59,807 bases of DNA from a virus. This document shows, in pieces, positions 1 to 27,000 of this stretch. The translations under genes were made by a program, and so were the position numbers. Each line of letters opens with the position of its first letter. Position 1 is the first letter of the stretch. Where the stretch lies: the IMG/VR virus record IMGVR_UViG_3300045988_174840, one strand, 5' to 3'. Under the pieces are notes generated by a model. The model searched no databases and was not told the DNA's origin. It saw only the letters and a list, made by a program, of their open reading frames with translations.

Positions 1-55
1 AACTTGTTACAATGGTATTATATCGCACCTTAGCTTAAAAGTCAAGCATTTTCGT

Positions 56-235
56 TTATTTTTTAAAATCTTTTAACTGCTGGTTTGTAGACAACTCTTT
101 AATTTTATATTTATGTAATCTGTTGTTTAAACAATAAATGCATGAACCATGGTTTCTGCACTGCATTGATATTGCTTTTGCTTTGCGGTATTCTTTTCTA
201 TGCTCTTTACCACTTTTAATTGCTTTGTCCATCAT
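56..235 (-). CDS. small Cys-rich hypothetical protein (59 aa, MMDKAIKSGKEHRKEYRK...CRNHGSCIYC)
   Basis: Minus-strand ORF below the 60-aa cutoff of the track. The ATG is preceded by an AGGTGG ribosome-binding site. Found by manual translation. Confidence 0.35.
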   Translation of the reverse strand: MMDKAIKSGKEHRKEYRKAKAISMQCRNHGSCIYCLNNRLHKYKIKELSTNQQLKDFKK

Positions 236-252
236 GTTTAACCACCTACTTT

Positions 253-726
253 CTATAAGAAATTTTTTAATACTTCCATGATATTGTTTACATCAAAACT
301 ATTTTTGCCCCACTCTTTTCTATTGCGTTCCTCGTCATCAAAAAGCCATCCCTTACAATCAACGACAGTACTTTTTGGTGTACCATAGTTTACAATTTTG
401 ATTTCATCCCATTCAATACTAGGCAAGTGTTTTTCAAGCCATGCAAGTTTTACACTTGTTACCGCCGTATTATAAGAAGCTGACCCGCTTTTACTTAACC
501 AGCTTACAATACCGATTCTATAGCCATTAGCTTGTAACTTGTGAAGCACTCTTGCGAAAGCTGAAAAATTGAAAAGCGGTTTTGCTACTTTGTATGGTGT
601 AGTATCTTCTTTTTCCAAATATGCTAACCAGTTTTCCACGCCGTAGAAATTAGCAAGTGTGCCGTCCATGTCAAAATAAATAGTTCCCTTTGTGTTCATC
701 ATTTCTTTAATTGTATTATTCATCAT
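253..726 (-). CDS. HAD-superfamily 5'(3')-deoxyribonucleotidase-like hydrolase
   Basis: Track ORF 253..738. HAD motif I FDMDGTLA (DxDxT) lies near the N-terminus. The track start is TTG; the first ATG (MMNNTIK) at 726 follows an AAGGGAAGGA ribosome-binding site. Confidence 0.6.
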   Translation of the reverse strand: MMNNTIKEMMNTKGTIYFDMDGTLANFYGVENWLAYLEKEDTTPYKVAKPLFNFSAFARVLHKLQANGYRIGIVSWLSKSGSASYNTAVTSVKLAWLEKHLPSIEWDEIKIVNYGTPKSTVVDCKGWLFDDEERNRKEWGKNSFDVNNIMEVLKNFL

Positions 727-844
727 AATATCTACCAATCCTTCCCTTTTTGATTATCGCAAGTGCTTTGCGATTGACCGACCAATGATTATGTGAACCT
801 TGCTTTGTTTCTGTTTTTTAAGTTTAATGTCCTTCGACAAGTAT

Positions 845-873
845 ATATTACTACATCTTAGCGAAAAAGTCAA
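845..873 (-). promoter_or_regulatory. sigma-A-type promoter (TTGACT-17-TAATAT) for the HAD hydrolase gene, followed by a leader with a 7-bp hairpin
   Basis: Reverse complement reads TTGACT, a 17-nt spacer, then TAATAT. The leader contains the hairpin ATCGCAA-AGCAC-TTGCGAT. Confidence 0.5.
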
Positions 874-1170
874 ATTTATTTTTTATTGTGCAAAGTGATG
901 AAAATTTTACATAAAAATCATAGTATTTTTGTTAAAATGTACAAATGTAGAAAAATAATGCGGATTTAGGCAGATTTTTGTGCATTTTGCTATCTTAAAT
1001 ATCACATATTGTGTTTCTGCGTGTCAAAAAAGGTATGATTTTTTATTAAAATTTCGTCACTTTGCACAAGGTGTAGAAAATCTTAGCATTATTTTATTAA
1101 ATTTTGTACATTTTGTACACCATGTCAAAAAATGGGATTTTTTTAATTTATTTTTTGTGCAAATTGCCTA

Positions 1171-1200
1171 TTGACAAAAAGGTGCTAGATGTGGTATAAT
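1171..1200 (+). promoter_or_regulatory. consensus promoter P1 (TTGACA-17-TGG-TATAAT, extended -10)
   Basis: Exact TTGACA and TATAAT hexamers with a 17-nt spacer and TGn. The promoter reads into the GC hairpin CGGGGTGCCCCG at 1208..1219. Confidence 0.7.
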
Positions 1201-1245
1201 AAAATTTCGGGGTGCCCCGACCCCGAACGGAATTCGTCTACTTCC

Positions 1246-1274
1246 ATTATAGCATACTCGAGCCACCTTGTCAA
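1246..1274 (-). promoter_or_regulatory. consensus promoter P2 on the minus strand (TTGACA-17-TATAAT), left arm of an inverted repeat
   Basis: Reverse complement of 1246..1274 reads TTGACA, a 17-nt spacer, then TATAAT. It is convergent with P1 across the 1208..1219 hairpin. Confidence 0.65.
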
Positions 1275-1332
1275 GAGAAAAAATGCACAAATTTTAGGAT
1301 AAAAATTTTGAAAAATTTGTGCATTTTTTCTC

Positions 1333-1361
1333 TTGACAAAATGTCTCAACTATGCTATAAT
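1333..1361 (+). promoter_or_regulatory. consensus promoter P3 (TTGACA-17-TATAAT), right arm of the inverted repeat
   Basis: Exact hexamers with a 17-nt spacer. The predicted transcript starts in the GC-rich hairpin 1366..1398, which contains the perfect palindrome GCTCGCGAGC. Confidence 0.7.
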
Positions 1362-1445
1362 GGAAGGCTCGGCTCGCATGGGCTGCTCGCGAGCCGGCTA
1401 TTATAACACATTTTCCGCGACTTGTCAACCCCTTTTAAAAAATTT

Positions 1446-1522
1446 TTTTATTTTCGTCATTTTGCATAAAAATAAAATTCAGCATTTTGCACAAATTTTA
1501 TTTTCGTCATTTTGCATAAAAA
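1446..1522. repeat. two copies of a 27-bp direct repeat TTTTATTTTCGTCATTTTGCATAAAAA, 50 bp apart
   Basis: Identical copies at 1446..1472 and 1496..1522. A related copy (TTTCGTCACTTTGCACAA) sits at ~1052..1073. Confidence 0.8.
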
Positions 1523-1549
1523 AACAAAAGCCTAAATTATATAGGCTTT
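1515..1549 (-). terminator. Rho-independent terminator for minus-strand gene 1568..1774; may also stop plus-strand transcripts from P1 and P3
   Basis: Hairpin AAAGCCTA-AATTATA-TAGGCTTT, followed on the minus strand by TGTTTTTTTATG. Confidence 0.65.
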
Positions 1550-1567
1550 ATCATTACTCTTATTAAG

Positions 1568-1774
1568 TTATTTAGTATTACATTTACATTTTGCTTCTGT
1601 AATAATTTCTGTCTGATTAATTTCTGTATTGCTATTGTTATTAAAAAAATGGTCTGAGCCTTTTGCTAAAAAAACTATTATAGTTGCTAGAATCATTCCG
1701 ATTATAAGAAAACCAATTAGACCATTCAAATCTCTTCTAAATTCTTCATCTGTTGGGGCTTTTTCTTCTCTCAT
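1568..1774 (-). CDS. small membrane protein (68 aa, one transmembrane helix)
   Basis: Track ORF with the hydrophobic segment LIGFLIIGMILATIIVFLA. Confidence 0.45.
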   Translation of the reverse strand: MREEKAPTDEEFRRDLNGLIGFLIIGMILATIIVFLAKGSDHFFNNNSNTEINQTEIITEAKCKCNTK

Positions 1775-1820
1775 TTATTTTTTCCTTTTTTTAGAGTTGT
1801 GAGTTGTGAATTTCATGGAC

Positions 1821-2000
1821 TTAATTATTATTAAGTCCATGAAACTTTTTATTTTCTCGTTTCATTATTGTTTCATAAGCAATCTCTACTATTTCTTTTG
1901 AAATATTTTGATTTTCTGCTATTTTACAGAACATAATCACTGTATCATTTTCAAACCCTTTTACTTTAATTACATTATCCATCATCTCTGTTCTTGTCAT
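1821..2000 (-). CDS. small early protein (59 aa, MTRTEMMDNVIKVKGFENDTVIMFCKIAE...)
   Basis: The first 7 codons of track ORF 1821..2021 lie inside the conserved promoter leader. The true ATG at 2000 follows an AAGAGAGG ribosome-binding site. Confidence 0.5.
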   Translation of the reverse strand: MTRTEMMDNVIKVKGFENDTVIMFCKIAENQNISKEIVEIAYETIMKRENKKFHGLNNN

Positions 2001-2032
2001 TATTGCTTTCCTCTCTTTCATTTGATAATGTT

Positions 2033-2061
2033 ATTATACTATAAAGTCGGCTACTTGTCAA
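2033..2061 (-). promoter_or_regulatory. early promoter-leader cassette copy (TTGACA-17-TATAAT plus leader AACATTATCAAATGAAAGAGAGG)
   Basis: Reverse complement shows the consensus hexamers. The leader is shared with cassette copies at 2956, 3438, 3784, 4170, 4921 and 5977. Confidence 0.7.
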
Positions 2062-2159
2062 CTACATTTTTTAAATGTTTAATTGCTTTTTCTCATTTTT
2101 ACTATCTTTTTCTTTTTTCTTTGTCGCATGAGTTTTTAAAACTCATGCGACTTTTACTA

Positions 2160-2285
2160 TTATTTTATTACTACTGCGTAAGCAAGTTCTACTGTTGTAT
2201 TTGAAACTTCACTTTCTGCTAATTTACAAAACCAGATTGTCAGTTCATCTTCAAAGCCTCTTGCTTTAATCACATTGTCCGTCAT
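2160..2285 (-). CDS. truncated paralog (41 aa, MTDNVIKARGFEDELTIWFCKLAESEV...) of the 1821..2000 protein
   Basis: Manual translation. It shares DNVIKxxGFExxxxIxFCKxAE with the neighbouring gene and has its own promoter at 2318..2346. Confidence 0.4.
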   Translation of the reverse strand: MTDNVIKARGFEDELTIWFCKLAESEVSNTTVELAYAVVIK

Positions 2286-2317
2286 TTCTTTTTTTACTGT
2301 TGTCTTTGACTGTTTTT

Positions 2318-2346
2318 ATATTATCACAAAAGCTTGATTTTGTCAA
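2318..2346 (-). promoter_or_regulatory. promoter (TTGACA-17-TAATAT) for the 41-aa paralog
   Basis: Hexamers found on the reverse complement. Confidence 0.5.
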
Positions 2347-2364
2347 GTTTTTGTGATATTTTTT

Positions 2365-2697
2365 TTACTTTTTTTGTTTAAAATTACTATGTAATTCAAT
2401 TACTTTACCGCAGTTGTCACAAGTCCAATAGTAAATTGTTCCGACATTTTTTATATAGTCTGCGTTTGCAAATCTCCATTTATTTCCGCACTCTACACAG
2501 TAGCCATTGTTCCAATTTACTTTATCGGATGATTGTTCAATTTTAATTAGCCATGTAAAAGTGCATCCTATTAAAAGAGCTAAGATAATGCCAATTACTG
2601 TTTTAATGATTCGATTTCCATTTTCATAAAAGATGTTTACCATAAATCCGCCAACGAATATTGTCATAAGAATCGTTACTAAAATTGTTCTAATCAT
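2365..2697 (-). CDS. membrane protein with two transmembrane helices and a C-terminal CxxC...CxxC zinc ribbon (110 aa)
   Basis: Hydrophobic N-terminal half, then CVECGN...CDNCGK. A promoter TTGACA-17-TATTAT lies upstream at ~2730-2760. Confidence 0.5.
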   Translation of the reverse strand: MIRTILVTILMTIFVGGFMVNIFYENGNRIIKTVIGIILALLIGCTFTWLIKIEQSSDKVNWNNGYCVECGNKWRFANADYIKNVGTIYYWTCDNCGKVIELHSNFKQKK

Positions 2698-2720
2698 TTT
2701 TTAATTCCTTCTTTCTTTAT

Positions 2721-2921
2721 TTATTTATTATTACTATCTCTCTTAACTATATTTATAATATCACATTTTTCGGTTTTTGTCAAGCCTTTTTCCTCTTTTA
2801 AAATTCTATTGATTTGGTTTTTAATATCCTTCAAATCTTCAAGACTGCAATAAACTTTATCACCCCAACCGCCTTTAATTGTATAAGGATAACTCTTATC
2901 ATCACTTTTTTCTACTGTCAT
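2721..2921 (-). CDS. small early protein (66 aa, MTVEKSDDKSYPYTIKGGWGDKVYC...)
   Basis: The first 21 codons of track ORF 2721..2984 are the translated promoter cassette. The true ATG at 2921 follows the conserved leader and an AGAGAGAGG ribosome-binding site. Confidence 0.5.
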   Translation of the reverse strand: MTVEKSDDKSYPYTIKGGWGDKVYCSLEDLKDIKNQINRILKEEKGLTKTEKCDIINIVKRDSNNK

Positions 2922-2955
2922 TTTTATCAACCTCTCTCTTTCATTTGATAATGTT

Positions 2956-2984
2956 ATTATACTATAGGTCTTAACAAAAGTCAA
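2956..2984 (-). promoter_or_regulatory. early promoter-leader cassette copy (TTGACT-17-TATAAT). The -35 sits inside hairpin GGTCTTAAC-AAAA-GTCAAGACC, followed on the plus strand by TATTTTATTTTTT
   Basis: Seen on the reverse complement. The hairpin plus T-run reads as a terminator on the plus strand. Confidence 0.65.
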
Positions 2985-3002
2985 GACCTATTTTATTTTT
3001 TC

Positions 3003-3404
3003 TCAAATTTTTGTTATTCCTCTGTCTTTCAAATATTCACAAAAACTATCAGAGTCAAGCATTTTCGCAATGTCTTTCATTGAAACGTTCATTTTGTTAT
3101 ACACACAACGTACTTCAATAGGTTTAAATTTTTTTTCTGTAATAGCTGTTGATAAAGAATCTTCTACATTGCTTAATCGAACAACTCTTTTTTTAAAGAA
3201 ATTTTTTGAAATTTCAGCATTTATAAATAAACCTTTTTCAACTAAATTAATCAGTTCGTCAAAAGTGTTGATTGTAAAGTTCCTTGTCTTTGCTTCTGCT
3301 TCTTCTGGGGTAAGGTATCTTACGTGTTCCCAGATACTTGTATCAACAAAGTTTTTTCGACCCTCTATTCTGTACTTGAATCTATAATCATAAACTTCTT
3401 TCAT
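3003..3404 (-). CDS. hypothetical early protein (133 aa)
   Basis: Track ORF 3003..3413 starts at TTG. The ATG (MKEVYDYRF) at 3404 follows the leader AAGAAAGAGGTTGATAAAA. Confidence 0.5.
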   Translation of the reverse strand: MKEVYDYRFKYRIEGRKNFVDTSIWEHVRYLTPEEAEAKTRNFTINTFDELINLVEKGLFINAEISKNFFKKRVVRLSNVEDSLSTAITEKKFKPIEVRCVYNKMNVSMKDIAKMLDSDSFCEYLKDRGITKI

Positions 3405-3437
3405 TTTTATCAACCTCTTTCTTTATTTTCTATATTT

Positions 3438-3466
3438 ATTATACAGTATCTATTGACTTTTGTCAA
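3438..3466 (-). promoter_or_regulatory. early promoter-leader cassette copy (TTGACA-17-TATAAT)
   Basis: Reverse complement. The same downstream element TCAAGACCTATTTTATTTTTT occurs as at 2984. Confidence 0.65.
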
Positions 3467-3481
3467 GACCTATTTTATTTT

Positions 3482-3742
3482 TTATTTTGGAAGGATAACC
3501 TCAGCTTCGACAGGTACTACTTTCTCAGATGCCATAAAAGCTTTCATATATCCCGTAGCAAGATTAACCGCAATGAATCTACCTTTTTGTCTTTCCAAGA
3601 AAAAACCGCTATTCCTATCAATAATCATGTACAACCCGATTTCATCAATACCACCTCTTTGACTAATACTGAAAAAAGTTTTTCCTATTGTCAAGTCATT
3701 GATGCAAATTTCTGTTGCTTTTTTATCATAGTTGATTTTCAT
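3482..3742 (-). CDS. hypothetical early protein (86 aa, MKINYDKKATEICIND...)
   Basis: Track ORF with the cassette promoter 3784..3812 upstream. Confidence 0.5.
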   Translation of the reverse strand: MKINYDKKATEICINDLTIGKTFFSISQRGGIDEIGLYMIIDRNSGFFLERQKGRFIAVNLATGYMKAFMASEKVVPVEAEVILPK

Positions 3743-3783
3743 TTTTGTTTTCCTCTCTTTTTCTTTCTTTTATTTCTGTATTT

Positions 3784-3812
3784 ATTATATCATGTAGGGG
3801 CTGAAATGTCAA
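3784..3812 (-). promoter_or_regulatory. early promoter cassette copy (TTGACA-17-TATAAT). The -35 is embedded in hairpin AGGGGCTGAAATGTCAACCCCT (3796..3817)
   Basis: Reverse complement. The plus strand shows the hairpin followed by ATTTATTTTTTAAT. Confidence 0.65.
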
Positions 3813-3826
3813 CCCCTATTTATTTT

Positions 3827-4135
3827 TTAATGATTAAACCGCAGATAATTTTTAATCCAGTTTTTACCAAACTCTTTTTCTAACTGTTTTTCCTCTTCTG
3901 GGTTCGTTTCCATGATTGAGATTTTCATAATTGAATCCCAGTCCATAGTTGTAAACCACGTTCCCTCTTTCATGCCTTTACTAAAGTGAAAAGTGTCAAG
4001 AATAAAATCCATTGTTTCCTGTCGTTTAATTGTTTTCATACATTCTTCTAAAGAAAGAACCCGATTGTCAAAAACTGGTTTAGTTTCAAAACCTGTTACT
4101 TTCCATCCGCTAATTTTACTTTTAATTTTTAACAT
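3827..4135 (-). CDS. hypothetical early protein (102 aa)
   Basis: Track ORF 3827..4144 starts at TTG. The ATG (MLKIKSKISGW) follows the leader AAAAAGAGAGGTTGATAAAA. Confidence 0.5.
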   Translation of the reverse strand: MLKIKSKISGWKVTGFETKPVFDNRVLSLEECMKTIKRQETMDFILDTFHFSKGMKEGTWFTTMDWDSIMKISIMETNPEEEKQLEKEFGKNWIKNYLRFNH

Positions 4136-4169
4136 TTTTATCAACCTCTCTTTTTCATTTGATAATATT

Positions 4170-4198
4170 ATTATACACTACTTTTGAAAATCTGTCAA
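4170..4198 (-). promoter_or_regulatory. early promoter-leader cassette copy (TTGACA-17-TATAAT)
   Basis: Reverse complement of TCATTTGATAATATTATTATACACTAC...TGTCAAGAC. Confidence 0.65.
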
Positions 4199-4300
4199 GA
4201 CTTTTTTATTTTTTTCTTAACTATTTTTTTTACTTTCAACCATGTTTTTTGTTGTTGCTTTTTTATCATAATTAATTTTCATTTTAATTACCTCTCTTTC

Positions 4301-4483
4301 TTATTTAATTTCTTTAAAGATACTTTCATCTGTGGCATTACATAACTTATTATTTACGTTATACTTAGCATAAAGCCACTTTTTACAATCCCATTTTAGC
4401 GGACAATGATAACAAGTTGTAGTAAAAGCCGTGGTTTCCATCGGAATTGCAAGAAATATCTTTTTAAGTTTTTTAGTTATCAT
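4301..4483 (-). CDS. hypothetical early protein (60 aa, Cys-containing)
   Basis: Track ORF with a strong AAGGAAGGAG ribosome-binding site. Promoter 4517..4545 lies upstream. Confidence 0.5.
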   Translation of the reverse strand: MITKKLKKIFLAIPMETTAFTTTCYHCPLKWDCKKWLYAKYNVNNKLCNATDESIFKEIK

Positions 4484-4516
4484 ATTATTTTTTTCTCCTT
4501 CCTTTTAACTATCTTT

Positions 4517-4545
4517 ATAATACCATATTAAAATTATTTTGTCAA
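4517..4545 (-). promoter_or_regulatory. promoter (TTGACA-17-TATTAT)
   Basis: Hexamers on the reverse complement. Confidence 0.5.
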
Positions 4546-4624
4546 TCCCCTTTTATAAAAAATTATAAAAAAGGAAGATTTTTTATCTTCCTTTTACTTT
4601 TGTTTTATTCTTGTTTTTTTATTT

Positions 4625-4786
4625 TTATCTTAATAATCTTAATAAATAGTTATTTTCATGCTCTTTCAAAAAAGCGTTAATTTCTTCTATTGTTTCAGCG
4701 TAAATCTCGCCTGTCTCAGTGTCTACAAGCATCAATTTTTTACTTCCTAAAAATAATCCTAAATCTAACATATTTAAGCCCTCCAT
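4625..4786 (-). CDS. small hypothetical protein (53 aa, MEGLNMLDLGLFLGSKKLMLVDTETGEIYAETIEE...)
   Basis: Manual translation of an ORF below the track cutoff. Its start overlaps the stop of the upstream 39-aa ORF (TAATG). Confidence 0.3.
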   Translation of the reverse strand: MEGLNMLDLGLFLGSKKLMLVDTETGEIYAETIEEINAFLKEHENNYLLRLLR

Positions 4787-4905
4787 TAAGAAATTTTTAC
4801 CAGATAACCGTTTGTATTTTTTTCTACTGAAAAAATGTATTGATTATCTTTTAAGTATTTTTTTACAGTTTCAAATGCTTTTCGAGTTGTCAGTAACATT
4901 GTCAT
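4786..4905 (-). CDS. small hypothetical protein (39 aa, MTMLLTTRKAFETVKKYLKDNQYIFSVEKN...)
   Basis: Manual translation. It follows cassette leader ...AAAGAGAGGTAAAGGGAT and a promoter near 4921..4970. Confidence 0.3.
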   Translation of the reverse strand: MTMLLTTRKAFETVKKYLKDNQYIFSVEKNTNGYLVKIS

Positions 4906-5083
4906 ATCCCTTTACCTCTCTTTCATTTGATAATACTATGATACTATATTTCTTTGCTTTTGTCAAGCATTTTAGGAAAATTTTCTAAAGATTTTTTTAT
5001 GCGGATTTCCGCTGGAAAAACCTGAACTTAAAGAGATTATAGGCGAACCGACTCCAGAACTATCAAGTTCGGGAGTCCCTTTT

Positions 5084-5254
5084 TTATTTAAGGAATGATT
5101 CTAAAGCCTTGTAGCATAAATCAGCGTTTTCTTTATCTTTTATGCTAGTACCTTTAGAAAAGTCATTCATAGCGGCTGTCAGTAGTTCTGGTACTGAAAT
5201 AAATTCAAATACCAACTGTAAAGCCGCCAATTCATTAAGATTGACTTTTTTCAT
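5084..5254 (-). CDS. small hypothetical protein (56 aa, MKKVNLNELAALQLVFEFISVPELL...)
   Basis: Manual translation. An AAAGGAGATAAG ribosome-binding site and a TATAAT -10 lie upstream. Confidence 0.35.
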   Translation of the reverse strand: MKKVNLNELAALQLVFEFISVPELLTAAMNDFSKGTSIKDKENADLCYKALESFLK

Positions 5255-5400
5255 CGGTTCTTTCTTATCTCCTTTTTAAATATTTTATTTTCTTTACATT
5301 ATTATTATATCAAATTTTTTAATAAAAATCAAAAAAGATACTTTATCTAAACAAGCAAAGAAAAGGGCTGAACTTATTCCGCCCTTTTCCCGCTTCCCCG

Positions 5401-5667
5401 CTATCCTATTATCTCTGCATTTGTAATAATATCATCTGTCACGTTGTCAGTCCCTAAAGAATCCATGTATAATTTAACTCTATCTTTTGCTTTAAAACCG
5501 TCTCCATAGAAACTCCAAACATGTCCGTAGCTATCCATAACCACCACCTCATCATTAAAAGAGCTAATCACTTTAGCTTCTCTTGTATACTTAGTAAAGC
5601 TACCAAAACCGCAAATACTACTTAAAACTGCACTTACTGCTAATCCTAAAATCACCTTTTTCATCAT
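5401..5667 (-). CDS. secreted or lipoprotein-like small protein (signal peptide MMKKVILGLAVSAVLSSIC)
   Basis: Track ORF 5401..5679 starts at TTG. The first ATG at 5667 is followed by a hydrophobic signal sequence. Confidence 0.45.
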   Translation of the reverse strand: MMKKVILGLAVSAVLSSICGFGSFTKYTREAKVISSFNDEVVVMDSYGHVWSFYGDGFKAKDRVKLYMDSLGTDNVTDDIITNAEIIG

Positions 5668-5669
5668 AT

Positions 5670-5948
5670 CTAACTCCAACCTCTTTCTTTCTTAATCTTT
5701 TCGTATCTTTCTTTTGCTTCTTTTTCAATCTTCTTTTTGTCATACATTCTAATTTTCATTCTAGTATATCCGTCTCTTTTTAAACACCAACGTTCTGTTT
5801 TACGTTGTACTACTATTTTATCAATAGCTCTTTGCTGTACCTCTTGCTTATGAGTGTTGTAATATTTGATACTCTCAATTTCTAATAAAGTACTTATTGG
5901 TCTGTACTTATTGGTTACACTAAACAAAGTGCATTGAATTGTTATCAT
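5670..5948 (-). CDS. hypothetical basic protein (92 aa, K/E/R-rich C-terminus)
   Basis: Track ORF. Cassette promoter 5977..6005 and leader AAAAGAGAGGTGATAAGAAG lie upstream. Confidence 0.5.
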   Translation of the reverse strand: MITIQCTLFSVTNKYRPISTLLEIESIKYYNTHKQEVQQRAIDKIVVQRKTERWCLKRDGYTRMKIRMYDKKKIEKEAKERYEKIKKERGWS

Positions 5949-5976
5949 CTTCTTATCACCTCTCTTTTCAAGTATT

Positions 5977-6005
5977 ATTATACTACCTTATTATACCATT
6001 GTCAA
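5977..6005 (-). promoter_or_regulatory. early promoter-leader cassette copy (TTGACA-17-TATAAT)
   Basis: Reverse complement reads CTTGACAATGGTATAATAAGGTAGTATAATAATACTTGAAAAGAGAGG. Confidence 0.65.
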
Positions 6006-6412
6006 GCGTTTATTTATAGTATTTTTATTCGTCTTAATGCATATTTATTTATGTATATTTATTCACATTGCTAGTTAGCTTTACATATTTTATATTTATA
6101 TCCTTTTATAAATTTTATAAATTAAATTATAAAATAAAATATAATATATCAGTTATTGCATTGTTTTACTTAATATTTATTTAAGCATATCTTTCTTATT
6201 ATACTATTATGTTATTCTATTATAACTATTATAAGACAAGAGTCTTACGTTGAATACACTATTATTATTATTGTAACACTTCTATAAAAGTAATTACATA
6301 ATATAAAATATTATTATACTTATACTTTGTATGTATTGTTATAGTATAATATTATTATACTGTTATTATTATTATTATTATTATCTTTCCTTTATCTTAA
6401 GCTTAATCTCTC

Positions 6413-6441
6413 ATTATAACACCTTTAGCTCATTCTGTCAA
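6413..6441 (-). promoter_or_regulatory. consensus promoter (TTGACA-17-TATAAT) reading leftward into the 6000-6400 AT-rich non-coding block
   Basis: Reverse complement reads TGTCTATTGACAGAATGAGCTAAAGGTGTTATAATGAGAG. The -35 lies within a TGTC-N4-GACA palindrome. Confidence 0.65.
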
Positions 6442-6720
6442 TAGACATTTTACACAATTTTTTCTTTTGATTTTCGTGCAGATTGACCATTGACATTTCT
6501 TGTCTATTGACATTTTGTACAAAAATCAAATTATATTTTTGTATACTTTTACCATTGACAGGACTTGTCAATAGACATAATGCACAAAATTTTCCTTGCA
6601 TTTTTGTGCAATTTTACCTATTGACAAACTCATTTTAGGAAAATATCTTTGTGCATTTTTTACAAAAATTTAGCCAAAAATTTGTGCATTTTGTCTATTG
6701 ACAGGCTTCTCGGAGCGTTG
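6420..6720. repeat. cluster of 7 YTATTGACA sites in both orientations, including two TGTC-N4-GACA palindromes, interleaved with TTTGTGCA motifs
   Basis: CTGTCAATAGACA at ~6436 and ~6566. CTATTGACA at ~6503, ~6618 and ~6695. CCATTGACA at ~6487 and ~6553. Confidence 0.75.
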
Positions 6721-7261
6721 CGAAAGTATACGCTCCGATGGTAGATGGCAAGCTACCAATAGCCAATAAAATTCTAATCTTCTTGCTTTATTTTAATTAT
6801 TTAAAGAATTTATTTTATTAGTTTAACTCTTTCTCCTCTTTATTTAAAATAATGTGTTCAAAATCCTTCTGAACAAAAAACATATCCTCTTTGGAAAATG
6901 ATTTGAAAAATTATTTGTTAGGCGGTGTTTTGTTGCTTCTTACTCAAAAGAAAAGACCAATCTACAGACCATACCCAAACATAATACCCGGGCTATATTA
7001 AAGGATTAAAATTTTTTACTTTTATAAAAAGATAGTGTTCTCCACAATTCTCTCTCCAAAAAAATTTTTAAATCTAAAAATTGAAGAAAATGAAGAAGAA
7101 AAAATTGAAATAATTCTCCTTCCAAAAATTTTAGAATCTAAGAATCTAAAATAAAAACTTTAAGGATTCTAAATATTAAAAAATTTTCTTCTTCTTCTTC
7201 TTTAAAAAATGCGTGAGTGTCAAGTTAATCTCCGAAATACGTTTAAAAGCTTAGTAATCAT

Positions 7262-7486
7262 CTAAAACATCGCGTTTGCCTGTTCATAATATTTTAATTC
7301 TTGAATCCAAGCGATTGGAATTACCATTTCCGCTTTAGCGTATCTTTCTATAGCATCCATGATTTCATGTCTCCTAGTATTGATTATTTCTAATCTAAAA
7401 GTTTCACGCGGAACCAATCCTGCAACTGCAACTGCAACTGTTTTCTTTGCTTTCCCTGTTTCGTTATTCATAGTCATATTACTCAT
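7262..7486 (-). CDS. hypothetical protein (74 aa)
   Basis: Track ORF. Confidence 0.4.
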   Translation of the reverse strand: MSNMTMNNETGKAKKTVAVAVAGLVPRETFRLEIINTRRHEIMDAIERYAKAEMVIPIAWIQELKYYEQANAMF

Positions 7487-7498
7487 ATTATTTTCCTC

Positions 7499-7843
7499 CT
7501 ATTTTACTATTTTAATTACTTTACCATGTTTTCCGCTCATTTTCATTTTCATAATAATCTTTCTAATTATTGCGTCTTTTCCATCATAAAAAAGTATAGC
7601 AAAATCAATATTATCTACCATTTTCTGAATTAATTTATCTATATTGCGATCAAATATATATTCAATAGGAGCACCATTATTTTCTGCCCATATTTTTCCA
7701 ATAGACTCCGAGAGCTTCTTCTCCGTATTCCCGCAAACAACAGTAAACAAGTAACACTGCGTTTCACAGATAAAATCTTCCATAGCTGCGGAGACTAGGC
7801 GATTATCCGCGAAACCGCGACTTCCAAGAATACTAATTCTCAT
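7499..7843 (-). CDS. SLOG/YpsA-like (DUF1273-type) Rossmann-fold protein
   Basis: The pattern ILGSRGF...GN...FAILFYDG...KIIM resembles the B. subtilis YpsA layout (LTGYKAHELGIF...GGAMGVD...ALLAIYDEE). AAGAGGAAAAAGAG ribosome-binding site. Confidence 0.4.
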   Translation of the reverse strand: MRISILGSRGFADNRLVSAAMEDFICETQCYLFTVVCGNTEKKLSESIGKIWAENNGAPIEYIFDRNIDKLIQKMVDNIDFAILFYDGKDAIIRKIIMKMKMSGKHGKVIKIVK

Positions 7844-7924
7844 CTCTTTTTCCTCTTGTTTTATTTATAAAATAATTATAACAAAAATTTTTTAAAAAAT
7901 CCAATTAAAGTGCTTTAATCAAAT

Positions 7925-7953
7925 TTGACAAAAAAATTTTTTTGTGGTATAAT
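7925..7953 (+). promoter_or_regulatory. consensus promoter (TTGACA-17-TGG-TATAAT) for the morphogenesis operon
   Basis: Exact hexamers with an extended -10, almost identical to P1 at 1171. AAAGGAGA ribosome-binding site and ATG at 7981. Confidence 0.65.
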
Positions 7954-7980
7954 ATAATTGTAAATTAGAAAGGAGAAATT

Positions 7981-9138
7981 ATGACACCAATAATAATAGA
8001 AGATGAAGCTTTTGAGGAGAATATTTTAGAAGAAGAAAAAACAACAGAAAAACAAATCAAAGAAGAAAATATACAAACTACTATTAAATTAGATTATTCT
8101 TTAGAGACTCCTGAAGAGCGGAATGAATTAGTTAAAAAAATTATAAATAATACTCCTTCTGAGCAATTAACACCTAGATATTTAGAAATATTGTCAGATT
8201 ACATTATTTTTGCTATGGATAAACAAGAGCGGAAACAAAAGCAAATATTAACTGATAATCACATGGTCACAGTTAACAAAAGAGAAACTTCTTTTGAAGG
8301 ATTAGTTGGTCGCTTAGAGAATGGCGAAGATGGCATTTATAATATGATTGCTAATGATAAGAATATTATCTTTACACCTAAATTTCAAATAACTCAACAA
8401 GATATTGCGGAAATCCCCGAGTTAAAGCAACTTGTAGACGCGATTGCGGAAGTTGAAAAAGCTGAGAAAAAAGCAGTTGGTAAAAAGAAATTTTTATTAA
8501 AAAAGCAACTTATTGCTATGAGACAAGATCAATATGTAATTAGAAGTGCATATAAGCCGCCAATTTATTGTATGAACGCAATTAAAAGTTTTAGCAAAAT
8601 TGATTTTGATGAAAATGTTTCTATTAGCGGAGATGATGAAATTGAAGATAATAGCTTAGTTTCTTTTTTTAATCCTAAGCACGTATCTGCGTTATTATGT
8701 AACTATTCCCGCCTAAAAGAAGATGCATGGGGAAAATTCTATAGTGATTCATACTTTTTAATGGAAGATTTAGATACATTAATAGAAAAGACTTTAAGAG
8801 ACAGCTATCCAATGTATTATGACCTCTTGATTTATAAAATAGATGGAAAACAAAATCTTGAAATTCAAAGCCTATTGAATCAAAAGCATAATGTAAAACA
8901 TTCAGTGGAATATATATCATCTTTGTGGCGGAATAAGATACCTAAGCTATTGTCAGAGCAAGCTCAGGAAGACTACTTAATTTGGTATTATACGACTCAG
9001 AAGAAGGGAAAATGGAAAAAATGTTCCCGCTGTGGGGAAATCAAATTAGCTCATAATAAATTTTTTTCAAAGAATAAGACAAGCAAAGATCATTTTTACA
9101 GTATATGTAAATGTTGTCGAAATAAGAAAAATAAGTAA
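7981..9138 (+). CDS. hypothetical protein with a C-terminal Cys4 zinc ribbon (385 aa)
   Basis: CSRCGEIK...CKCCRNKKNK at the C-terminus. First gene of the late operon. Confidence 0.55.
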   Translation: MTPIIIEDEAFEENILEEEKTTEKQIKEENIQTTIKLDYSLETPEERNELVKKIINNTPSEQLTPRYLEILSDYIIFAMDKQERKQKQILTDNHMVTVNKRETSFEGLVGRLENGEDGIYNMIANDKNIIFTPKFQITQQDIAEIPELKQLVDAIAEVEKAEKKAVGKKKFLLKKQLIAMRQDQYVIRSAYKPPIYCMNAIKSFSKIDFDENVSISGDDEIEDNSLVSFFNPKHVSALLCNYSRLKEDAWGKFYSDSYFLMEDLDTLIEKTLRDSYPMYYDLLIYKIDGKQNLEIQSLLNQKHNVKHSVEYISSLWRNKIPKLLSEQAQEDYLIWYYTTQKKGKWKKCSRCGEIKLAHNKFFSKNKTSKDHFYSICKCCRNKKNK

Positions 9139-9150
9139 AGGAGGCTAATA

Positions 9151-10350
9151 ATGAATTATACTTGCAACAAATGCGGAAAATCAATGGATGAAATAAATTT
9201 TTATACATATAAAAATGGTAAAAAAACAGAATTATGTAAAAAATGTTTAACTATGCATATAAATAATTTTGAACCTAATACTTTCCTATGGGCATTAGAA
9301 AAGATGGATGTTCCATATGTTCCAGAAGAATGGAATATTTTAAGGGATAAAGCCTATGCAAAAGATCCTTATAAAATGAATGGGATGTCAGTATTTGGAA
9401 AATATCTTTCTAAAATGCGGCTAAAACAGTGGAAAAATTATAGTTGGGCAGATACAGAAAAGATTGCTCAAGAAAAAGAAAAAAAGACTCAAGAGGATCT
9501 CGAACAACAGAAAAAATTTGAAGAGAGTATGAAGCAACAGCTTGAAAAAGGGGAAATTTCTGAAGCTGAATACAAAACAATGGTTTCTACCCCTACTCAG
9601 AACGCGGAATTGGCGGTAAAAGCTCCTAAGAATGAGATTGGAACTGACAATTTTTATGATGAAAATAATTTTATAAGCGAGGATGAATTAATTGATCCCG
9701 CCGCGGAATTAACTCAAGAAGATAAGATTTACTTAGCTATGAAATGGGGACGTTTATACAAACCAAATGAGTGGGTTGAATTAGAGAAAAAATATGAAGA
9801 GATGACTAGTTCTTTTGATATTCAAGATTCAGATACTACAGGAACTTTAATTCTTATTTGTAAAACCTATTTAAAGATGAATCAGGCGATCGATTGCGGT
9901 GACATGGATGGATACCAGAAATTATCTAGAGTATACGATTCATTGCGTAAATCCGCAAAATTTACAGCCGCACAAAATAAAGAAGTAAAAAGTGATTTTG
10001 TAGACTGTATTGGAGAGATGGTTGCCTATTGTGAAAAAAATGGCGGTCAGATTCCAAGAATGAAGATAGAGGCTCCAAATGATATAGTAGATAAGGTTAT
10101 CATGGATTTAAAAGAGTATACGAGATCATTGATTTATGATGATAAATCCCTTGCTCAACAGATAGAAAATTATATTAAGCAGAGAGAAAATGCGGATGCG
10201 ATGAAGAAAGATAGAGAAGAAGCTAAAGAAAAAGGCTATAATCAAATAGAATTAAAAGATAGAGATTATCAAACTTATTTTGACAATATTGCAAAAGAAA
10301 AAGAAAATGATGAAAAAATTTATATAGGAGAGGATGAAGACTTTATATGA
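9151..10350 (+). CDS. hypothetical protein with an N-terminal zinc ribbon and a charged coiled-coil; terminase small subunit cannot be excluded
   Basis: CNKCGKS...CKKC in the first 35 aa. It lies immediately upstream of, and overlaps, the large terminase gene. Confidence 0.45.
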   Translation: MNYTCNKCGKSMDEINFYTYKNGKKTELCKKCLTMHINNFEPNTFLWALEKMDVPYVPEEWNILRDKAYAKDPYKMNGMSVFGKYLSKMRLKQWKNYSWADTEKIAQEKEKKTQEDLEQQKKFEESMKQQLEKGEISEAEYKTMVSTPTQNAELAVKAPKNEIGTDNFYDENNFISEDELIDPAAELTQEDKIYLAMKWGRLYKPNEWVELEKKYEEMTSSFDIQDSDTTGTLILICKTYLKMNQAIDCGDMDGYQKLSRVYDSLRKSAKFTAAQNKEVKSDFVDCIGEMVAYCEKNGGQIPRMKIEAPNDIVDKVIMDLKEYTRSLIYDDKSLAQQIENYIKQRENADAMKKDREEAKEKGYNQIELKDRDYQTYFDNIAKEKENDEKIYIGEDEDFI

Positions 10351-23357: not shown

Positions 23358-23386
23358 TTGACAAAAGAAAAATTTTATAGTATAAT
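23358..23386 (+). promoter_or_regulatory. internal consensus promoter (TTGACA-17-TATAAT) ahead of the chaperone-like and tape-measure genes
   Basis: CTTGACAAAAGAAAAATTTTATAGTATAAT. Confidence 0.55.
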
Positions 23387-24040: not shown

Positions 24041-27000
24041 ATGGCGGCTACAAATCGTATTGATTTTACAGTTGGCTTTAATACAGATCAAAGCGGTTTA
24101 TCAAGTATTAAGAAGGCATTAGAAGAAATTCAAAAAATGACTTCTGGTGATTTGATGAGCTTAAATAAAGGAATGGATTTAAGTGAAGCCAATAGCAGAT
24201 TATCTCAAATAAAAGAATCTGCTAGCCAAGTTCAAAAAGCGTTAGAAAAAGCTTTTAACGCGGATTTAGGAACATTAAATGTATCTAAATTTAACAATGA
24301 ATTAAAAAATTTAGATATAAATAAAATTTACAATGATTTTAATAGTGCGGGTTCGGCAGGACAAACCGCTTTTAAAAATATGACAACTCAGATTTTAACT
24401 ACTAATATGCAGTTAAAACAAACTCATAGCTTCTTAGAGAATATGGCTACAACTCTATCCAATACTATTAAATGGAATATTGCATCTGGAGCCATGAATG
24501 CATTAACTAATAACGTTCAACAAGCAGTTAATTATGTTGAAAAATTAGATACTTCATTAAATAATATTAGAATTGTAACTGGCAAATCTGCGGAAGAAAT
24601 GCGTGATTTCGCGGAATCTGCGAGTCAAACCGCTCAAGAGCTATCCGCGAGTACAAGAGATATAACTGAAGGAGCTTTAATTTATTATCAACAGGGTGAT
24701 ACAGATGAAGATGCTCTTGCTAAAGCTGAGATTACTCAGAAAACCGCGAATGTATCTCAGATTAGCTCAGAACAGGCTGCGGAATATTTAACTGCGGTTT
24801 GGAATGGTTATAAAGTAGCTAATGAAGCTGCGGCTGAAGGAATGGACGTTTATGAAAAATATGTAGACAAGTTAGCGGCTGTAGCAGCTACAACTGCGTC
24901 AGACTTAGCTGAATCTTCTATGGCTATTTCTAAAGTAGCTTCCGCAGCAAGTTCTATGGGCGTTGATTTTGACCAATTAAATGCTCAGATTGCGACTATT
25001 ATTTCTGTTACCCGCCAAGCACCAGAATCAGTAGGTACAGCCCTAAAGACAATTTATGCTCGTATGGGTGATCTAGCTGTTGATGGTGTTGATGAATTTG
25101 GAGTTTCTCTTGGTGAAGTTTCTGGAAAGATGAAAACAATGGGCATTGACATCTTAGATGAGAATGGTCATCTAAAAGAGATGGGAAATGTTATTGAAGA
25201 AGTAGCAGGTAAGTGGAGTACTTGGACAGACGAACAAAGACAAGCGGCAGCAGTTGCAATCGCAGGTAAGAGACAGTATAATAACTTAATTGCTTTATTT
25301 GATAACTGGGATATGTATACTGATGCTTTAGATACTTCTAAAAATGCATTGGGAACTCTTGAAGAACAACAGGACATCTATTCTGAAAGAACAGAAGCTC
25401 ATATCCAAAGAATGAGAACTACTTTCGAGGATTTATATGATTCTTTATTAAAGCCAGAAGCCATTAATAAAGTTGTCGACGGAATTACTTTTGTTGTAGA
25501 TAAAATTGCAACATTAGTTGACAATATCGGCGGTGGCAAGACTGTTCTTGCTGAGCTAGGATCTTTAGGTGTAAGAGTATTTAGTAAACAAATCGCTGGT
25601 GGTATTTCTACAACTATAGCTAATTTTAAAAATGTAAAATCTAATGCTGAACAACTTAATGCTCAATTAGAGATTTTACAACAGTATAAAGGATTATCTG
25701 CGTTAGATGAAGATACTAAAGAATTAGTAAATATGAAGCAAGAGATTGTGGATTTAGGATCTGTTGCTACTACTGAACAACAGAACATTGCTAACGGTTT
25801 TATTGAACAAATAAATGCTTTGCAAAATCAAAAGAAACAGTTAGAAGAGAATGAGGAAGCTGCAAAAAATCTTTATAAGGCTTTAACTAATGAAGAATTA
25901 GACTTAGATAGCCTTAGAGGAAAGGGCGAAGAAGCAGAAAAAACAGATACATATAAAGAAGTTCAGAAGCAAGTAGCTGAGACTCAGAAGCAGTATAAAA
26001 GTTTGAATAAAGAAGCTTCTAATTATGCTGGGGCTTTGACTTTAGCTACTTTTAATCAAAGACAAGCTTCTAAAGATAGTTCAAAGCAAGAAGAGGCAAT
26101 TAAATCTTATGAAGCTTTAACTATCGCTGTAAAAAAATATAATGATGAAGTAAAAAAAATAGTTTCTTCAAGTCCAGAAGTCGCAAGTGCTTATGAAAAT
26201 TTTAATAAGAAATTAAAAGAGTATAGTGAACTCACAGGAAATGCTGAAAAATCGGTAGGAGAATTAATTGCGACTTACCCAGAATTAAGCAAAGCTTTCA
26301 AAGAGGTAACAGAAGTAAGTAAAGATTATGCTAGCCAAGCGGCAAGTGATGCACAGAAGGTCATGAAAACTGCACAAGATGTCGCTGCAGGGATAGGGGA
26401 AAAAGTAAAAGAAAAATTAGATGAGTCTCGCTCTGCATGGAAAAGCTTTATAGATGATGTAAGAAATACTGCGGTTATTCAATCAGCCCTAGACATTGCG
26501 GGTTCTATTGGAGAAATAGGTTCTTCTATAGTTAGTTTAAAAGGAATATGGGATGTTTTTTCAGATGATTCTTTATCTATAACAGAAAAATTAGGACAAT
26601 CATTTACTGTTTTGCTTTCTACTTTACCACTTCTCATAGATGGGATTCAAGGACTTCGAGCAGGTCTTATAACTTTGGCTCAAAATGCAATTCCAGCTTT
26701 AGCTGGCTCTTCTTTGACTGCGTGGGAAGCGATTGGAGCATTATTTTCAGCCTCTTGGATTGGTTGGGCTGCGGCGGCAGTAGGTGCGATTGCACTAGTA
26801 GTATTCGCTATAGATCATTTTACGGTAAGTGCAAAAGAGGCAAAAGAAGCTTTAGAGAGTCAATTTGAAGAGTATGAAAAAGCTCAACAGGAAGTAGATG
26901 AATTAAATTCTAAGTTAGAAACAACACAAGAAAGATTAAAAGAATTATATCAAATTTCTCCAGATGAGCTTACTCTTGCACAAAAAGAGGAACTAAAAAC

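Follow-up and report, generated by a model that had tools for sequence, protein, structure and literature searches.

Promoter–leader cassettes before small orphan genes of a human-gut phage probably double as recombination sites

INTRODUCTION

Promoter-early stem-loops (PeSLs) are repeats found in T4-type myoviruses (Arbiol et al. 2010, PMC2839356; Comeau et al. 2014, PMC4122927). Each is about 100 bp long and consists of an AT-rich upstream part, sigma-70 -35 and -10 boxes, and a Shine–Dalgarno (SD) sequence with a start codon at the 3' end, while the stem-loop varies in position and may overlap the -35 or sit between the boxes (PMC2839356). They occur in hyperplastic regions before ORFans, where indels between close relatives are bounded by PeSLs and leave chimeric repeats (PMC2839356). 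In the searchable literature, PeSLs are reported mainly from large phages, T4-like and other, that infect Gram-negative hosts and cyanobacteria, with no Bacillota phage among them. Here, we describe an array of promoter–leader cassettes in a viral sequence of 59,807 nt, IMG/VR record IMGVR_UViG_3300045988_174840 (hereafter the window, meaning this whole stretch of DNA). The array lies on the minus strand, where positions 1568–6005 hold about 15 small open reading frames (ORFs) of 21–133 aa. PeSLs are the closest described system because the repeats of this array appear to be crossover points as well.

Two further systems are useful for comparison. The host-takeover module of phage SPO1, as summarized in PMC6873191 (after Stewart et al. 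1998), is made up of mostly small early genes, arranged as numerous short operons whose promoters and ribosome sites are of the high-expression type. In the Staphylococcus Kayvirus vB_SauM-515A1, 58 host-dependent early promoters were mapped by RNA-seq; they have the form TTGACW, 17 bp, TRTGN, TATANT, and the transcript starts 6 bp after the -10 (PMC7698491).

We propose, with a probability of about 0.78, that the cassettes of the window are immediate-early units of promoter, leader and ribosome site for the host RNA polymerase, and that they are also portable recombination sites. A regulatory cassette that serves as a recombination module is known in the searchable literature from T4-like phages only; here it would extend to the early region of large Bacillota gut phages of an abundant uncultured family, in which several independent natural shuffling events have been caught at base-pair resolution.

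THE PROMOTER ARRAY

Promoters were located by a scan for TTGACA-N16-18-TATAAT, that is, with spacers of 16–18 nt allowed, and are named after the start coordinate of the -35 (e.g., P2984). The consensus is that of sigma-A/sigma-70. On the minus strand, the -35 hexamers start at 6441, 6005, 5332, 4966, 4545, 4198, 3812, 3466, 2984, 2783, 2346, 2061, 1428 and 1274. The spacer is 17 nt at all 14 sites, eight of which match the consensus at 12 of 12 positions. Eleven sites (six with 12/12 matches) fall within 2000–6005, and each of these has its -35 about 50–85 nt before the ATG of a small ORF on the same strand. A-tracts lie at -37 to -60, both in the cassette alignment and in a profile of 171 promoters described below, and upstream stop codons are 5–30 nt away.

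The promoter array is real and far beyond chance. In 300 dinucleotide-preserving shuffles of positions 1201–6500, perfect 12/12 sites with a 17-nt spacer had a mean of 0, compared with nine in the actual sequence, and 17-nt-spaced sites with at most one mismatch had a mean of 0.09, compared with 13. The remaining 50 kb of the window has just three perfect sigma-A sites. All strong sites in 1201–6500 are on the gene strand except the one at +1333, and those inside the array each stand just 5' of an ORF.

The original prediction had placed cassette copies at 2033, 2956, 3438, 3784, 4170 and 5977, with degenerate ones at 2318 and 4517. These coordinates are the 3' ends of minus-strand -10 hexamers, and its approximate copy at 4921 falls within the leader of P4966 (-10 end at 4938). 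All the sites it listed are indeed promoters, but three were overlooked, with -10 ends at 2755, 5304 and 6413. The cassettes are as follows.

5946–6030, minus strand: P6005; A-rich upstream region, -35 at 6005–6000, -10 at 5982–5977, SD GAGAGGTGAT (duplex -15.7 kcal/mol), ATG at 5948; predicted to drive the 92-aa and 88-aa genes.
5252–5345, minus strand: P5332, weaker; -35 TTGATT at 5332–5327, TG-extended -10 at 5309–5304, ATG at 5254; 10/12 match; overlooked earlier.
4903–4990, minus strand: P4966; -35 at 4966–4961, -10 TATCAT at 4943–4938, exact leader 20-mer at 4934–4915, ATG at 4905; predicted to drive the 39-aa and 48-aa genes.
4481–4568, minus strand: P4545; -35 at 4545–4540, -10 TATTAT at 4522–4517, another leader, ATG at 4483.
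4133–4222, minus strand: P4198, perfect; -35 at 4198–4193, -10 at 4175–4170, leader at 4166–4147, GAGGTTGATAAAA, ATG at 4135; stands before a different, 53-aa gene in sister genomes.
3740–3832, minus strand: P3812, perfect; 10-bp hairpin at 3818–3795 with the -35 in its 5' arm, A/G-rich alternative leader, ATG at 3742.
3402–3490, minus strand: P3466, perfect; weak -35 hairpin, leader AAATATAGAAAATAAAGAAAGAGGTTGATAAAA, ATG at 3404.
2919–3008, minus strand: P2984; A-tract, -35 hairpin at 2996–2959, -10 at 2961–2956, leader at 2952–2933, GAGGTTGATAAAA, ATG at 2921.
2695–2783, minus strand: P2783, inside the 3' end of the 66-aa ORF; -35 at 2783–2778, -10 TATTAT at 2760–2755, ATG at 2697; predicted to drive the 110-aa gene; overlooked earlier.
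2283–2368, minus strand: P2346, decayed; -10 TAATAT, 17-bp hairpin at 2358–2322, no SD; precedes the 41-aa truncated paralogue.
1998–2085, minus strand: P2061, perfect; exact leader 20-mer at 2029–2010, ATG at 2000.

THREE HOMOLOGY BLOCKS AND A CONSERVED LEADER

When the copies are aligned, they form a mosaic of three homology blocks and not one repeated unit. Block 1 is the A-tract with one hairpin arm and the -35 (AAAAAATAAAATAGGTCTTGAC) and is common to P2984 and P3466; block 2 is the -10 with the leader (TATAATAAYATTATCAAATGAAAGAGAGG) and is common to P2061, P2984, P4198 and P4966; block 3 is GAGGTTGATAAAAATG, common to P2984, P3466 and P4198. The resemblance among the remaining promoters is limited to the consensus hexamers and an A-rich upstream stretch. 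The cassettes end at the 3' side in the SD and start codon of the downstream gene. P2984 is the sole copy with every listed component, and it is identical to P2061 over about 33 nt, from TATAG through the -10 to the leader. The locus had been described as at least eight copies of a single cassette of about 75 nt. An A-rich upstream region and a promoter are present in all copies, but the leader is found in four and GAGGTTGATAAAAATG in three, so "one cassette" overstates a homology that exists as three separable blocks.

The 20-nt leader ATTATCAAATGAAAGAGAGG has four copies in the window (2010, 2933, 4147 and 4915), where 0.02 would be expected. Its 3' half, including TTGATA, pairs with 12–13 nt of the 3' tail of 16S rRNA with one or two bulges (-12 to -16 kcal/mol), a complementarity that leaves the 5' half (ATTATCAAAT) unaccounted for. 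Based on this pairing and on the register of ATCAAA relative to the -10, most of the conservation of the leader would reflect the context of the transcription start plus an extended ribosome site. The leader was also considered as a structured RNA, and this was rejected: the inverted repeat TTATCAA...TTGATAA around the SD folds at just -2.4 kcal/mol, and TTGATA also occurs without its partner, which extended 16S complementarity explains better.

GENE SHUFFLING BETWEEN SISTER GENOMES

Gene content varies among genomes of 88–100% identity. Three IMG/VR genomes (L010, L011 and L017; 88–93% nucleotide identity) are collinear with the window at 1–1495, 1825–2022 and 4567–9200; in place of window positions 2022–4567 they carry other small genes, and just cassette-sized stretches align. 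Among human-gut contigs of 131–136 kb that encode the identical 102-aa protein, the genes are arranged in at least six different orders.

Five rearrangements have both ends in cassette blocks and show hybrid cassettes in register, although cassettes make up only about 16% of the region. Firstly, a 53-aa gene, where present, lies between two copies of block 2/3, and the window has one copy. The promoter with the spacer GATTTTCAAAAGTAGTG stands before the 102-aa gene here and before the 53-aa gene in L010 and L011, and L017 has the 53-aa gene behind another promoter. Secondly, L037 is without the 133-aa gene and has a single, hybrid cassette that is P3466 up to GAGGTTGATAAAAATG and then leads into the 66-aa gene. 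Thirdly, L044 is without the same gene, with the crossover in block 1; because the crossover is in a different block, this loss is independent of that in L037. Fourthly, L042 is without the 66-, 110- and 41-aa genes, and its cassette follows P2984 before the identical -10/leader stretch of about 33 nt and P2061 after it. Finally, the body of the 86-aa gene has 56–74% nucleotide identity to the 83- or 91-aa alleles of sister genomes, while the flanking sequence is unchanged (100% identity) as far as the P3812 leader and is back at 98% identity from the -35 of P3466 on. A junction of the same kind is seen between two of the relatives: promoter 6621 of L011 equals promoter 5146 of L010, joined within the leader to a gene found two cassettes farther along in L010. 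The repeats thus appear, from these junctions, to be crossover points for gene shuffling between sister genomes, which the original prediction had overlooked.

COMPARISON WITH KNOWN SYSTEMS

The locus resembles PeSLs in its promoter, A-rich upstream region, SD and start codon, in its hyperplastic region before orphan genes, and in its cassette-bounded indels. It differs in that the stem-loop is optional (4 of 14 promoters) and has a T-run facing antisense, in that a conserved transcribed leader is a crossover block, and in that the phage is a large siphophage of low-GC Bacillota and not a T4-like myovirus of Gram-negative bacteria. There is no sequence homology, and promoter, terminator and mini-circle activity of the window cassettes is putative. 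Since the phage lineage is unrelated to T4-like myoviruses, we regard the system as an analogue of PeSLs, not a homologue.

The SPO1 module, so far as the summary in PMC6873191 describes it, is similar in its cluster of small genes, short operons and host-type promoters in a large virulent Bacillota phage that later uses its own sigma factor(s). The earlier comparison with SPO1 therefore holds for the layout, with a host-type promoter for each gene or gene pair beside a sigma-factor gene, but not for the takeover families, as PHROG and Pfam searches gave no protein homology to gp37–gp60. Moreover, the window phage is siphovirus-like, not a member of Herelleviridae. The SPO1 module lies in the terminal redundancy of its genome; the array of the window phage is mid-contig, at varying internal positions in assembled contigs whose starts are arbitrary.

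The promoter architecture of the Kayvirus is the same as that of the window. In the Enterococcus Schiekvirus TJE1, a cassette is 80% identical over 89 nt to the P3466 unit, including TATAATAAATAT..AAAGAAAG..TGATAAAAATG; the likeness is restricted to the cassette and does not extend to the genes. The Kayvirus and TJE1 papers describe the promoters, but not a shared leader or cassette-mediated shuffling. The cultured relative EF1 has the same array layout, and many -35 hairpins are found in it and in other relatives. Because EF1 and the unrelated TJE1 have comparable cassette arrays, the strategy is general among large virulent Bacillota phages.

Integrons likewise line up small genes, most of them orphans, in arrays whose content varies and whose cassettes are swapped as units at short conserved sites. 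The resemblance is an analogy only: the array of the window has neither an integrase nor attC, its genes have individual promoters instead of a common Pc, and exchange would proceed by general homologous recombination.

PROPOSED ROLE OF THE CASSETTES

In the role we propose, each small orphan gene or gene pair would have its own compact expression unit. The unit would begin with an A-rich UP-like tract, followed by a consensus sigma-A promoter (TTGACA, 17 nt, often TRTG, TATAAT); the transcript would probably start at the A of ATCAAA, 6–7 nt past the -10. The leader would be about 24 nt long, its 3' half (GAAAGAGAGGTTGAT) being an interrupted complement of the 16S rRNA 3' tail, with the start codon 7–10 nt on. 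Host RNA polymerase could in this way turn on all array genes together and strongly, before the phage sigma factor takes over. A promoter and leader of this compactness should be very strong in low-GC Gram-positive bacteria.

Because the units have three blocks of 17–38 identical bases in common, they may also serve as portable sites of homologous recombination. A crossover between two cassettes of one genome would delete the genes in between, and one between genomes would insert a gene or swap an allele, while every product would keep a working promoter and ribosome site.

Several points weigh against this proposal. Promoter activity, like the roles of the hairpins and proteins, is something we infer, and timing, promoter use and start site rest on consensus and analogy. 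Ribosome sites of early genes do not differ from those of late genes (medians -11.4 vs -10.7 kcal/mol, p = 0.24), and the idea of exceptionally strong ribosome sites for early genes was accordingly rejected. With a hairpin at just 4 of 14 promoters, the stem-loop part of the PeSL definition applies only partly. Not all rearrangements fall at cassettes: the boundaries of a 21-aa scar and of two deletions (138 nt in L043, 92 nt in L044) lie elsewhere, and a decayed 41-aa paralogue with its degenerate promoter (2160–2346) is a scar that did not use a cassette. Finally, the sister genomes are metagenome assemblies. Chimeric assembly is nevertheless unlikely, because the shared blocks of 17–80 nt are shorter than the final k-mers implied by the contig names (k127 and k141), and because one arrangement recurs in four samples.

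HAIRPINS AND POSSIBLE ANTISENSE INSULATION

The original prediction had a hairpin containing the -35 in each cassette. Three are stable, at P2984 (-17.1 kcal/mol), P3812 (-15.6 kcal/mol, z -5.8) and P2346 (-14.9 sense and -20.3 antisense kcal/mol), and the one at P3466 is weak (-7.4 kcal/mol), but the other ten of the 14 promoters have none. Most other intergenic regions have a separate hairpin upstream. Seven intergenic hairpins carry a T-run on the plus side only: 1811–1844, 2123–2151, 2322–2358, 2959–2996, 3443–3473, 3795–3818 and 5050–5077. The -35 hairpins had also been read, from the plus strand, as canonical terminators in every cassette. Such a stem-loop with a plus-strand T-run, the form of a Rho-independent terminator, is found at the four -35 hairpins and at 1811–1844, 2123–2151 and 5050–5077, but among the -35 hairpins this amounts to only 4 of 14 promoters. 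Two or three hairpins are bidirectional or sense-oriented. The hairpins away from the promoters are as follows.

1811–1844, plus strand: antisense-facing terminator; 15-bp hairpin, T-run on plus only, -18.5 kcal/mol.
2123–2151, plus strand: stand-alone hairpin of 13 bp, T-run on plus only, -18.3 kcal/mol.
5050–5077, plus strand: hairpin 3' of the 56-aa gene, T-run on plus only, -14.4 kcal/mol.
4569–4595, both strands: bidirectional terminator 3' of the 48-aa gene, also a homology breakpoint relative to L010 and L011.
5353–5395, minus strand: terminator-like hairpin 3' of the 88-aa gene, -20.6 kcal/mol.
1527–1549, minus strand: sense-oriented intrinsic terminator that closes the array; the only clear sense-only one.

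Where present, the hairpins stand just past the upstream stop codon and could end antisense transcripts of the plus strand; for sense transcripts, their effect would be limited to attenuated read-through or to protection of 3' ends. It is possible, though doubtful, that hairpin and A-tract were selected mainly as a directional insulator that blocks plus-strand transcripts, such as those from 1171 and 1333, and lets sense transcripts pass. The perfect consensus promoters at these two plus-strand positions aim into the array, the seven one-sided hairpins compare with a single clear sense-only terminator, and the plus-facing hairpins at 1811–1844 and 2123–2151 belong to no promoter. However, the sense strand is A-rich (AT skew -0.17 to -0.24), as are both flanks of the hairpins, so any hairpin would mimic a plus-strand terminator, and ten of the 14 promoters are without one. 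The equivalent stem-loop of T4-type PeSLs halted sense transcription (PMC2839356). The T-run is the A-rich upstream element that all promoters have, and the whole strand is rich in A, so antisense insulation may be a by-product.

Directly downstream of the closing terminator, two near-perfect copies of a 50-nt direct repeat, TTTTATTTTCGTCATTTTGCATAAAAA, lie at 1446–1527 (94% identity), and a related copy stands between them.

THE LEADER IN OTHER GENOMES AND ALTERNATIVE EXPLANATIONS

The exact leader 20-mer occurs 27 times in 25 IMG/VR contigs with a GC content of 0.28–0.46. All 27 copies lie 0–3 nt after a -10 and 7–10 nt before a start codon, and the promoter spacers and downstream genes are unrelated. 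In 596 Gb of bacterial genomes there are ten matches, of which six are in a promoter context (Bacillota metagenome-assembled genomes or prophage-like contigs), one of these six preceding a bacterial ABC-transporter gene; another of the ten (Paenibacillus, L028) stands before a start codon with no obvious promoter, and the other three are chance matches in other sequence. Altogether, the 20-mer is identical and in the same register in at least 14 different genomic contexts. A simple signature for finding the early regions of such phages in metagenomes is TATAAT, about 3 nt, and then ATTATCAAATGAAAGAGAGG.

The promoter profile was built from 171 unique strong promoters of 11 loci, with the promoters used to fish the loci excluded. 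It shows phased upstream A/T tracts, the TRTG extension and an A-rich start region, with ATCAAA at offset 6 after the -10 in 29 of the 171 promoters and a median of 31 nt from the -10 to the ATG. The ATCAAA register agrees with the mapped start sites of the Kayvirus (PMC7698491). A second conserved leader, TTTACAAGGTAAGGRAAG, follows straight after the -10 of several TTGTGCA-box promoters (the box is described below) in L002, L008, L012 and L025, and is absent from the window.

One alternative is that the cassettes are expression signals only, which converged independently on an optimal sigma-A promoter and ribosome site, as in SPO1, and have no role in rearrangement. Consensus promoters and extended SD complementarity do cover most of the conserved positions, the 20-mer is also found in unrelated phages and before the ABC-transporter gene, and similar arrays exist in Schiekvirus TJE1 and the Kayvirus. 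Nevertheless, we consider this unlikely. The five sister rearrangements have both ends in cassettes, although these make up only about 16% of the region, and positions without function are identical too: P2984 has a spacer-adjacent TATAG before the -10 in common with P2061, and with P3466 the hairpin arm AGGTC that precedes the -35. Such identity between copies in one genome argues for copying rather than convergence.

The leader AUCAAAUGAAAGAGAGG, which runs from the predicted transcription start on, has exactly the same letters, in a fixed register, in at least 14 unrelated Bacillota phage or prophage contexts. It is conceivable, although improbable, that beyond being a good ribosome site it is a docking sequence for orphan-gene cassettes moving between unrelated phages, for example as excised mini-circles with one hybrid cassette, or else a common site for a factor that controls the entire early class. 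If the docking idea were true, it would amount to a recombinase-free, integron-like capture of genes.

There is also little probability that AUCAAAUGAAAGAGAGG is a dedicated recognition element for the joint shut-off of the early class by a phage or host factor that binds or cuts it, whether through a translational repressor, an endoribonuclease such as T4 RegB, which acts on early mRNAs, or a DNA operator. Its exact 20-nt identity in a fixed register across those contexts, together with the 5' half that 16S complementarity does not account for, would fit such a role. But most cassettes of the same arrays have other leaders, so only part of the class would come under such control; the leader folds on itself at -2.4 kcal/mol or not at all and thus forms no stable RNA structure, it has no Rfam match, and no candidate regulator was found among the genes.

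A small mobile element (MITE- or IS-like, or homing) that carries a promoter can be dismissed: although the copies are many and dispersed and the flanked genes show presence/absence polymorphism, there are no terminal inverted repeats or target-site duplications, the junctions are simple in-register crossovers within shared sequence, the copies have one orientation only and are in frame with gene starts, and no transposase or nuclease is encoded in the region (PHROG and Pfam searches).

THE SMALL GENES

The translation starts proposed earlier at 2000, 2921, 3404 and 4135 are borne out: they have correct SD spacing, and the resulting lengths of 59, 66, 133 and 102 aa match gene calls in public contigs and homologues. 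The extended ORFs are, as had been suspected, artefacts: their apparent start codons, ATG or TTG, fall within the leader or at the -35. The genes of the array are as follows.

5670–5948, minus strand: 92-aa orphan, kept in all sister genomes.
5401–5667, minus strand: 88 aa, N-terminal signal/lipoprotein-like segment, kept in sister genomes.
5084–5254, minus strand: 56-aa orphan.
4786–4905, minus strand: 39-aa orphan.
4625–4771, minus strand: 48-aa orphan.
4301–4483, minus strand: 60-aa Cys-rich orphan.
4217–4282, minus strand: 21-aa chimeric scar ORF; N-terminus and leader of the MKINYDKK family joined to C-terminal codons of the MENKK gene of relatives.
3827–4135, minus strand: 102-aa orphan, identical protein on 83 contigs; confident model, no known fold.
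3482–3742, minus strand: 86 aa, phrog_7431 (unknown function); 83- or 91-aa alleles instead in sister genomes.
3003–3404, minus strand: 133-aa orphan that some sister genomes have and others do not, with at least two independent losses; confident model, no known fold.
2721–2921, minus strand: 66-aa orphan, one module with the 110-aa gene.
2365–2697, minus strand: 110 aa, two predicted membrane helices and CxxC...CxxC (membrane/zinc-ribbon).
2160–2285, minus strand: 41-aa remnant paralogue of the 59-aa gene, 69% nucleotide identity to the single-copy orthologue of relatives.
1821–2000, minus strand: 59-aa orphan (MTRTEMMD...), in all sister genomes, behind different promoters.
1568–1774, minus strand: 68-aa small membrane protein, last gene of the array, not in L010, L011 or L017.

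The array had been named as the place to look for host-takeover or anti-defence effectors. Searches of PHROG, Pfam and solved structures with the 17 small proteins gave no family linked to such activity; PHROG and Pfam gave no function for any small protein of the array, and structure prediction yielded two confident models, of the 102-aa and 133-aa proteins, without a match to a known fold. With corrected starts for about 15 orphan genes, this likely immediate-early set can now be screened for host-takeover or anti-defence activity.

In the sister genome L044, a 202-aa PARG-like gene (PF10021; L044 positions 127–735) leads the early array, in the place taken in the window by the 114-aa and 74-aa genes. 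This hints that the region is a site for counter-defence cargo.

PHAGE IDENTITY AND NEIGHBOURHOOD

Over the 8 kb compared, the window matches a human-gut metagenome contig of 135,112 bp (L038) at 100% identity; the GC content of the window is about 30%. Among deposited phages, the nearest are two human-faecal fragments that lack annotation; EF1, VRE9, H1 and phAss-1 come next, and Brevibacillus phage Sundance is more distant at 24–28% aa identity. Portal and sigma factor have 32–39% aa identity to Enterococcus phages EF1, VRE9 and H1 (phAss-1 for the portal only). The plus-strand genes next to the array include, besides the sigma factor, those for a terminase and the portal; the window also encodes NrdD, and the terminase too relates to large siphophages of the EF1/VRE9, phAss-1 and Sundance type. 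EF1-type relatives are siphophages of about 135–140 kb. At the DNA level, deposited phages gave short, cassette-sized matches only. These data are best explained by a siphophage of about 135 kb and of virulent type that infects low-GC Bacillota in the human gut and has its own sigma factor.

The sigma-factor gene (phrog_5767, E 4.5e-52, no Pfam match) lies at 7981–9138 on the plus strand, divergent from the early array and behind a perfect TG-extended sigma-A promoter at 7925. Its product has a CxxC...CxxC motif at the C-terminus with a faint endonuclease VII-like match. The ORF at 24041–32572 (2843 aa) is likened to the tape measure of phAss-1 relatives by length alone. The sole perfect sigma-A promoter within the long plus-strand structural block, at 23358–23386, is just 5' of a 177-aa gene that precedes this ORF. 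Inspection of plus-strand intergenic regions by eye revealed no common late-promoter motif, and a tRNA search found none.

Two clusters, at 886–1494 and 6457–6682, bracket the array and contain 11 of the 19 copies of TTGTGCA in the window, or 12 sites when TTGTGTA at 6457 is included. At seven of these sites the box is 9–10 nt 5' of a -35 (e.g., TTGTGCAAATTGCCTATTGACA), and the same layout of box and promoter is found in the distant relatives L002, L015, L025 and L027. The box looks like a transcription-factor site or a second promoter class.

At 1171–1428, perfect promoters face each other in two pairs (+1171/-1274 and +1333/-1428), each around a GC-rich palindrome of about 40–45 nt in DNA of 30% GC. 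The predicted transcript from -1274 is about 50 nt long and ends in a called terminator at 1227–1206. Relatives have the same face-to-face layout with different GC-rich stems, often starting with GGAAAUUUCG; the insert is inverted between L010 and L017 and shortened in L011, and the 92-nt deletion of L044 is located there. Rfam searches of positions 1–8000 and of four related loci gave only spurious miRNA-hairpin matches on the 55-nt inverted repeat at 1241–1366, and no CRISPR-repeat or small RNA (sRNA) family. The GC-rich units of some relatives (a hairpin and then ATTGAAAC) bear a loose, unconfirmed likeness to CRISPR repeats. The idea that the small GC-rich hairpin units beside the array are RNA anti-CRISPRs found no support from Rfam.

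Between the array and the 74-aa and 114-aa genes, positions 6010–7260 form a stretch of about 1.2 kb without a convincing ORF, with a GC content of 0.26. Within it, 6436–6705 holds repeats spaced by 65 nt with TTGTGCA boxes in both orientations, and an (ATA)n run lies at about 6364–6393. The stretch may be a regulatory hub or an origin. Towards the other end of the window, a DNA polymerase gene is split into ORFs at 58527–59606 and 55906–57003 (minus strand), with a free-standing GIY-YIG homing-endonuclease gene at 57461–58369 between them.

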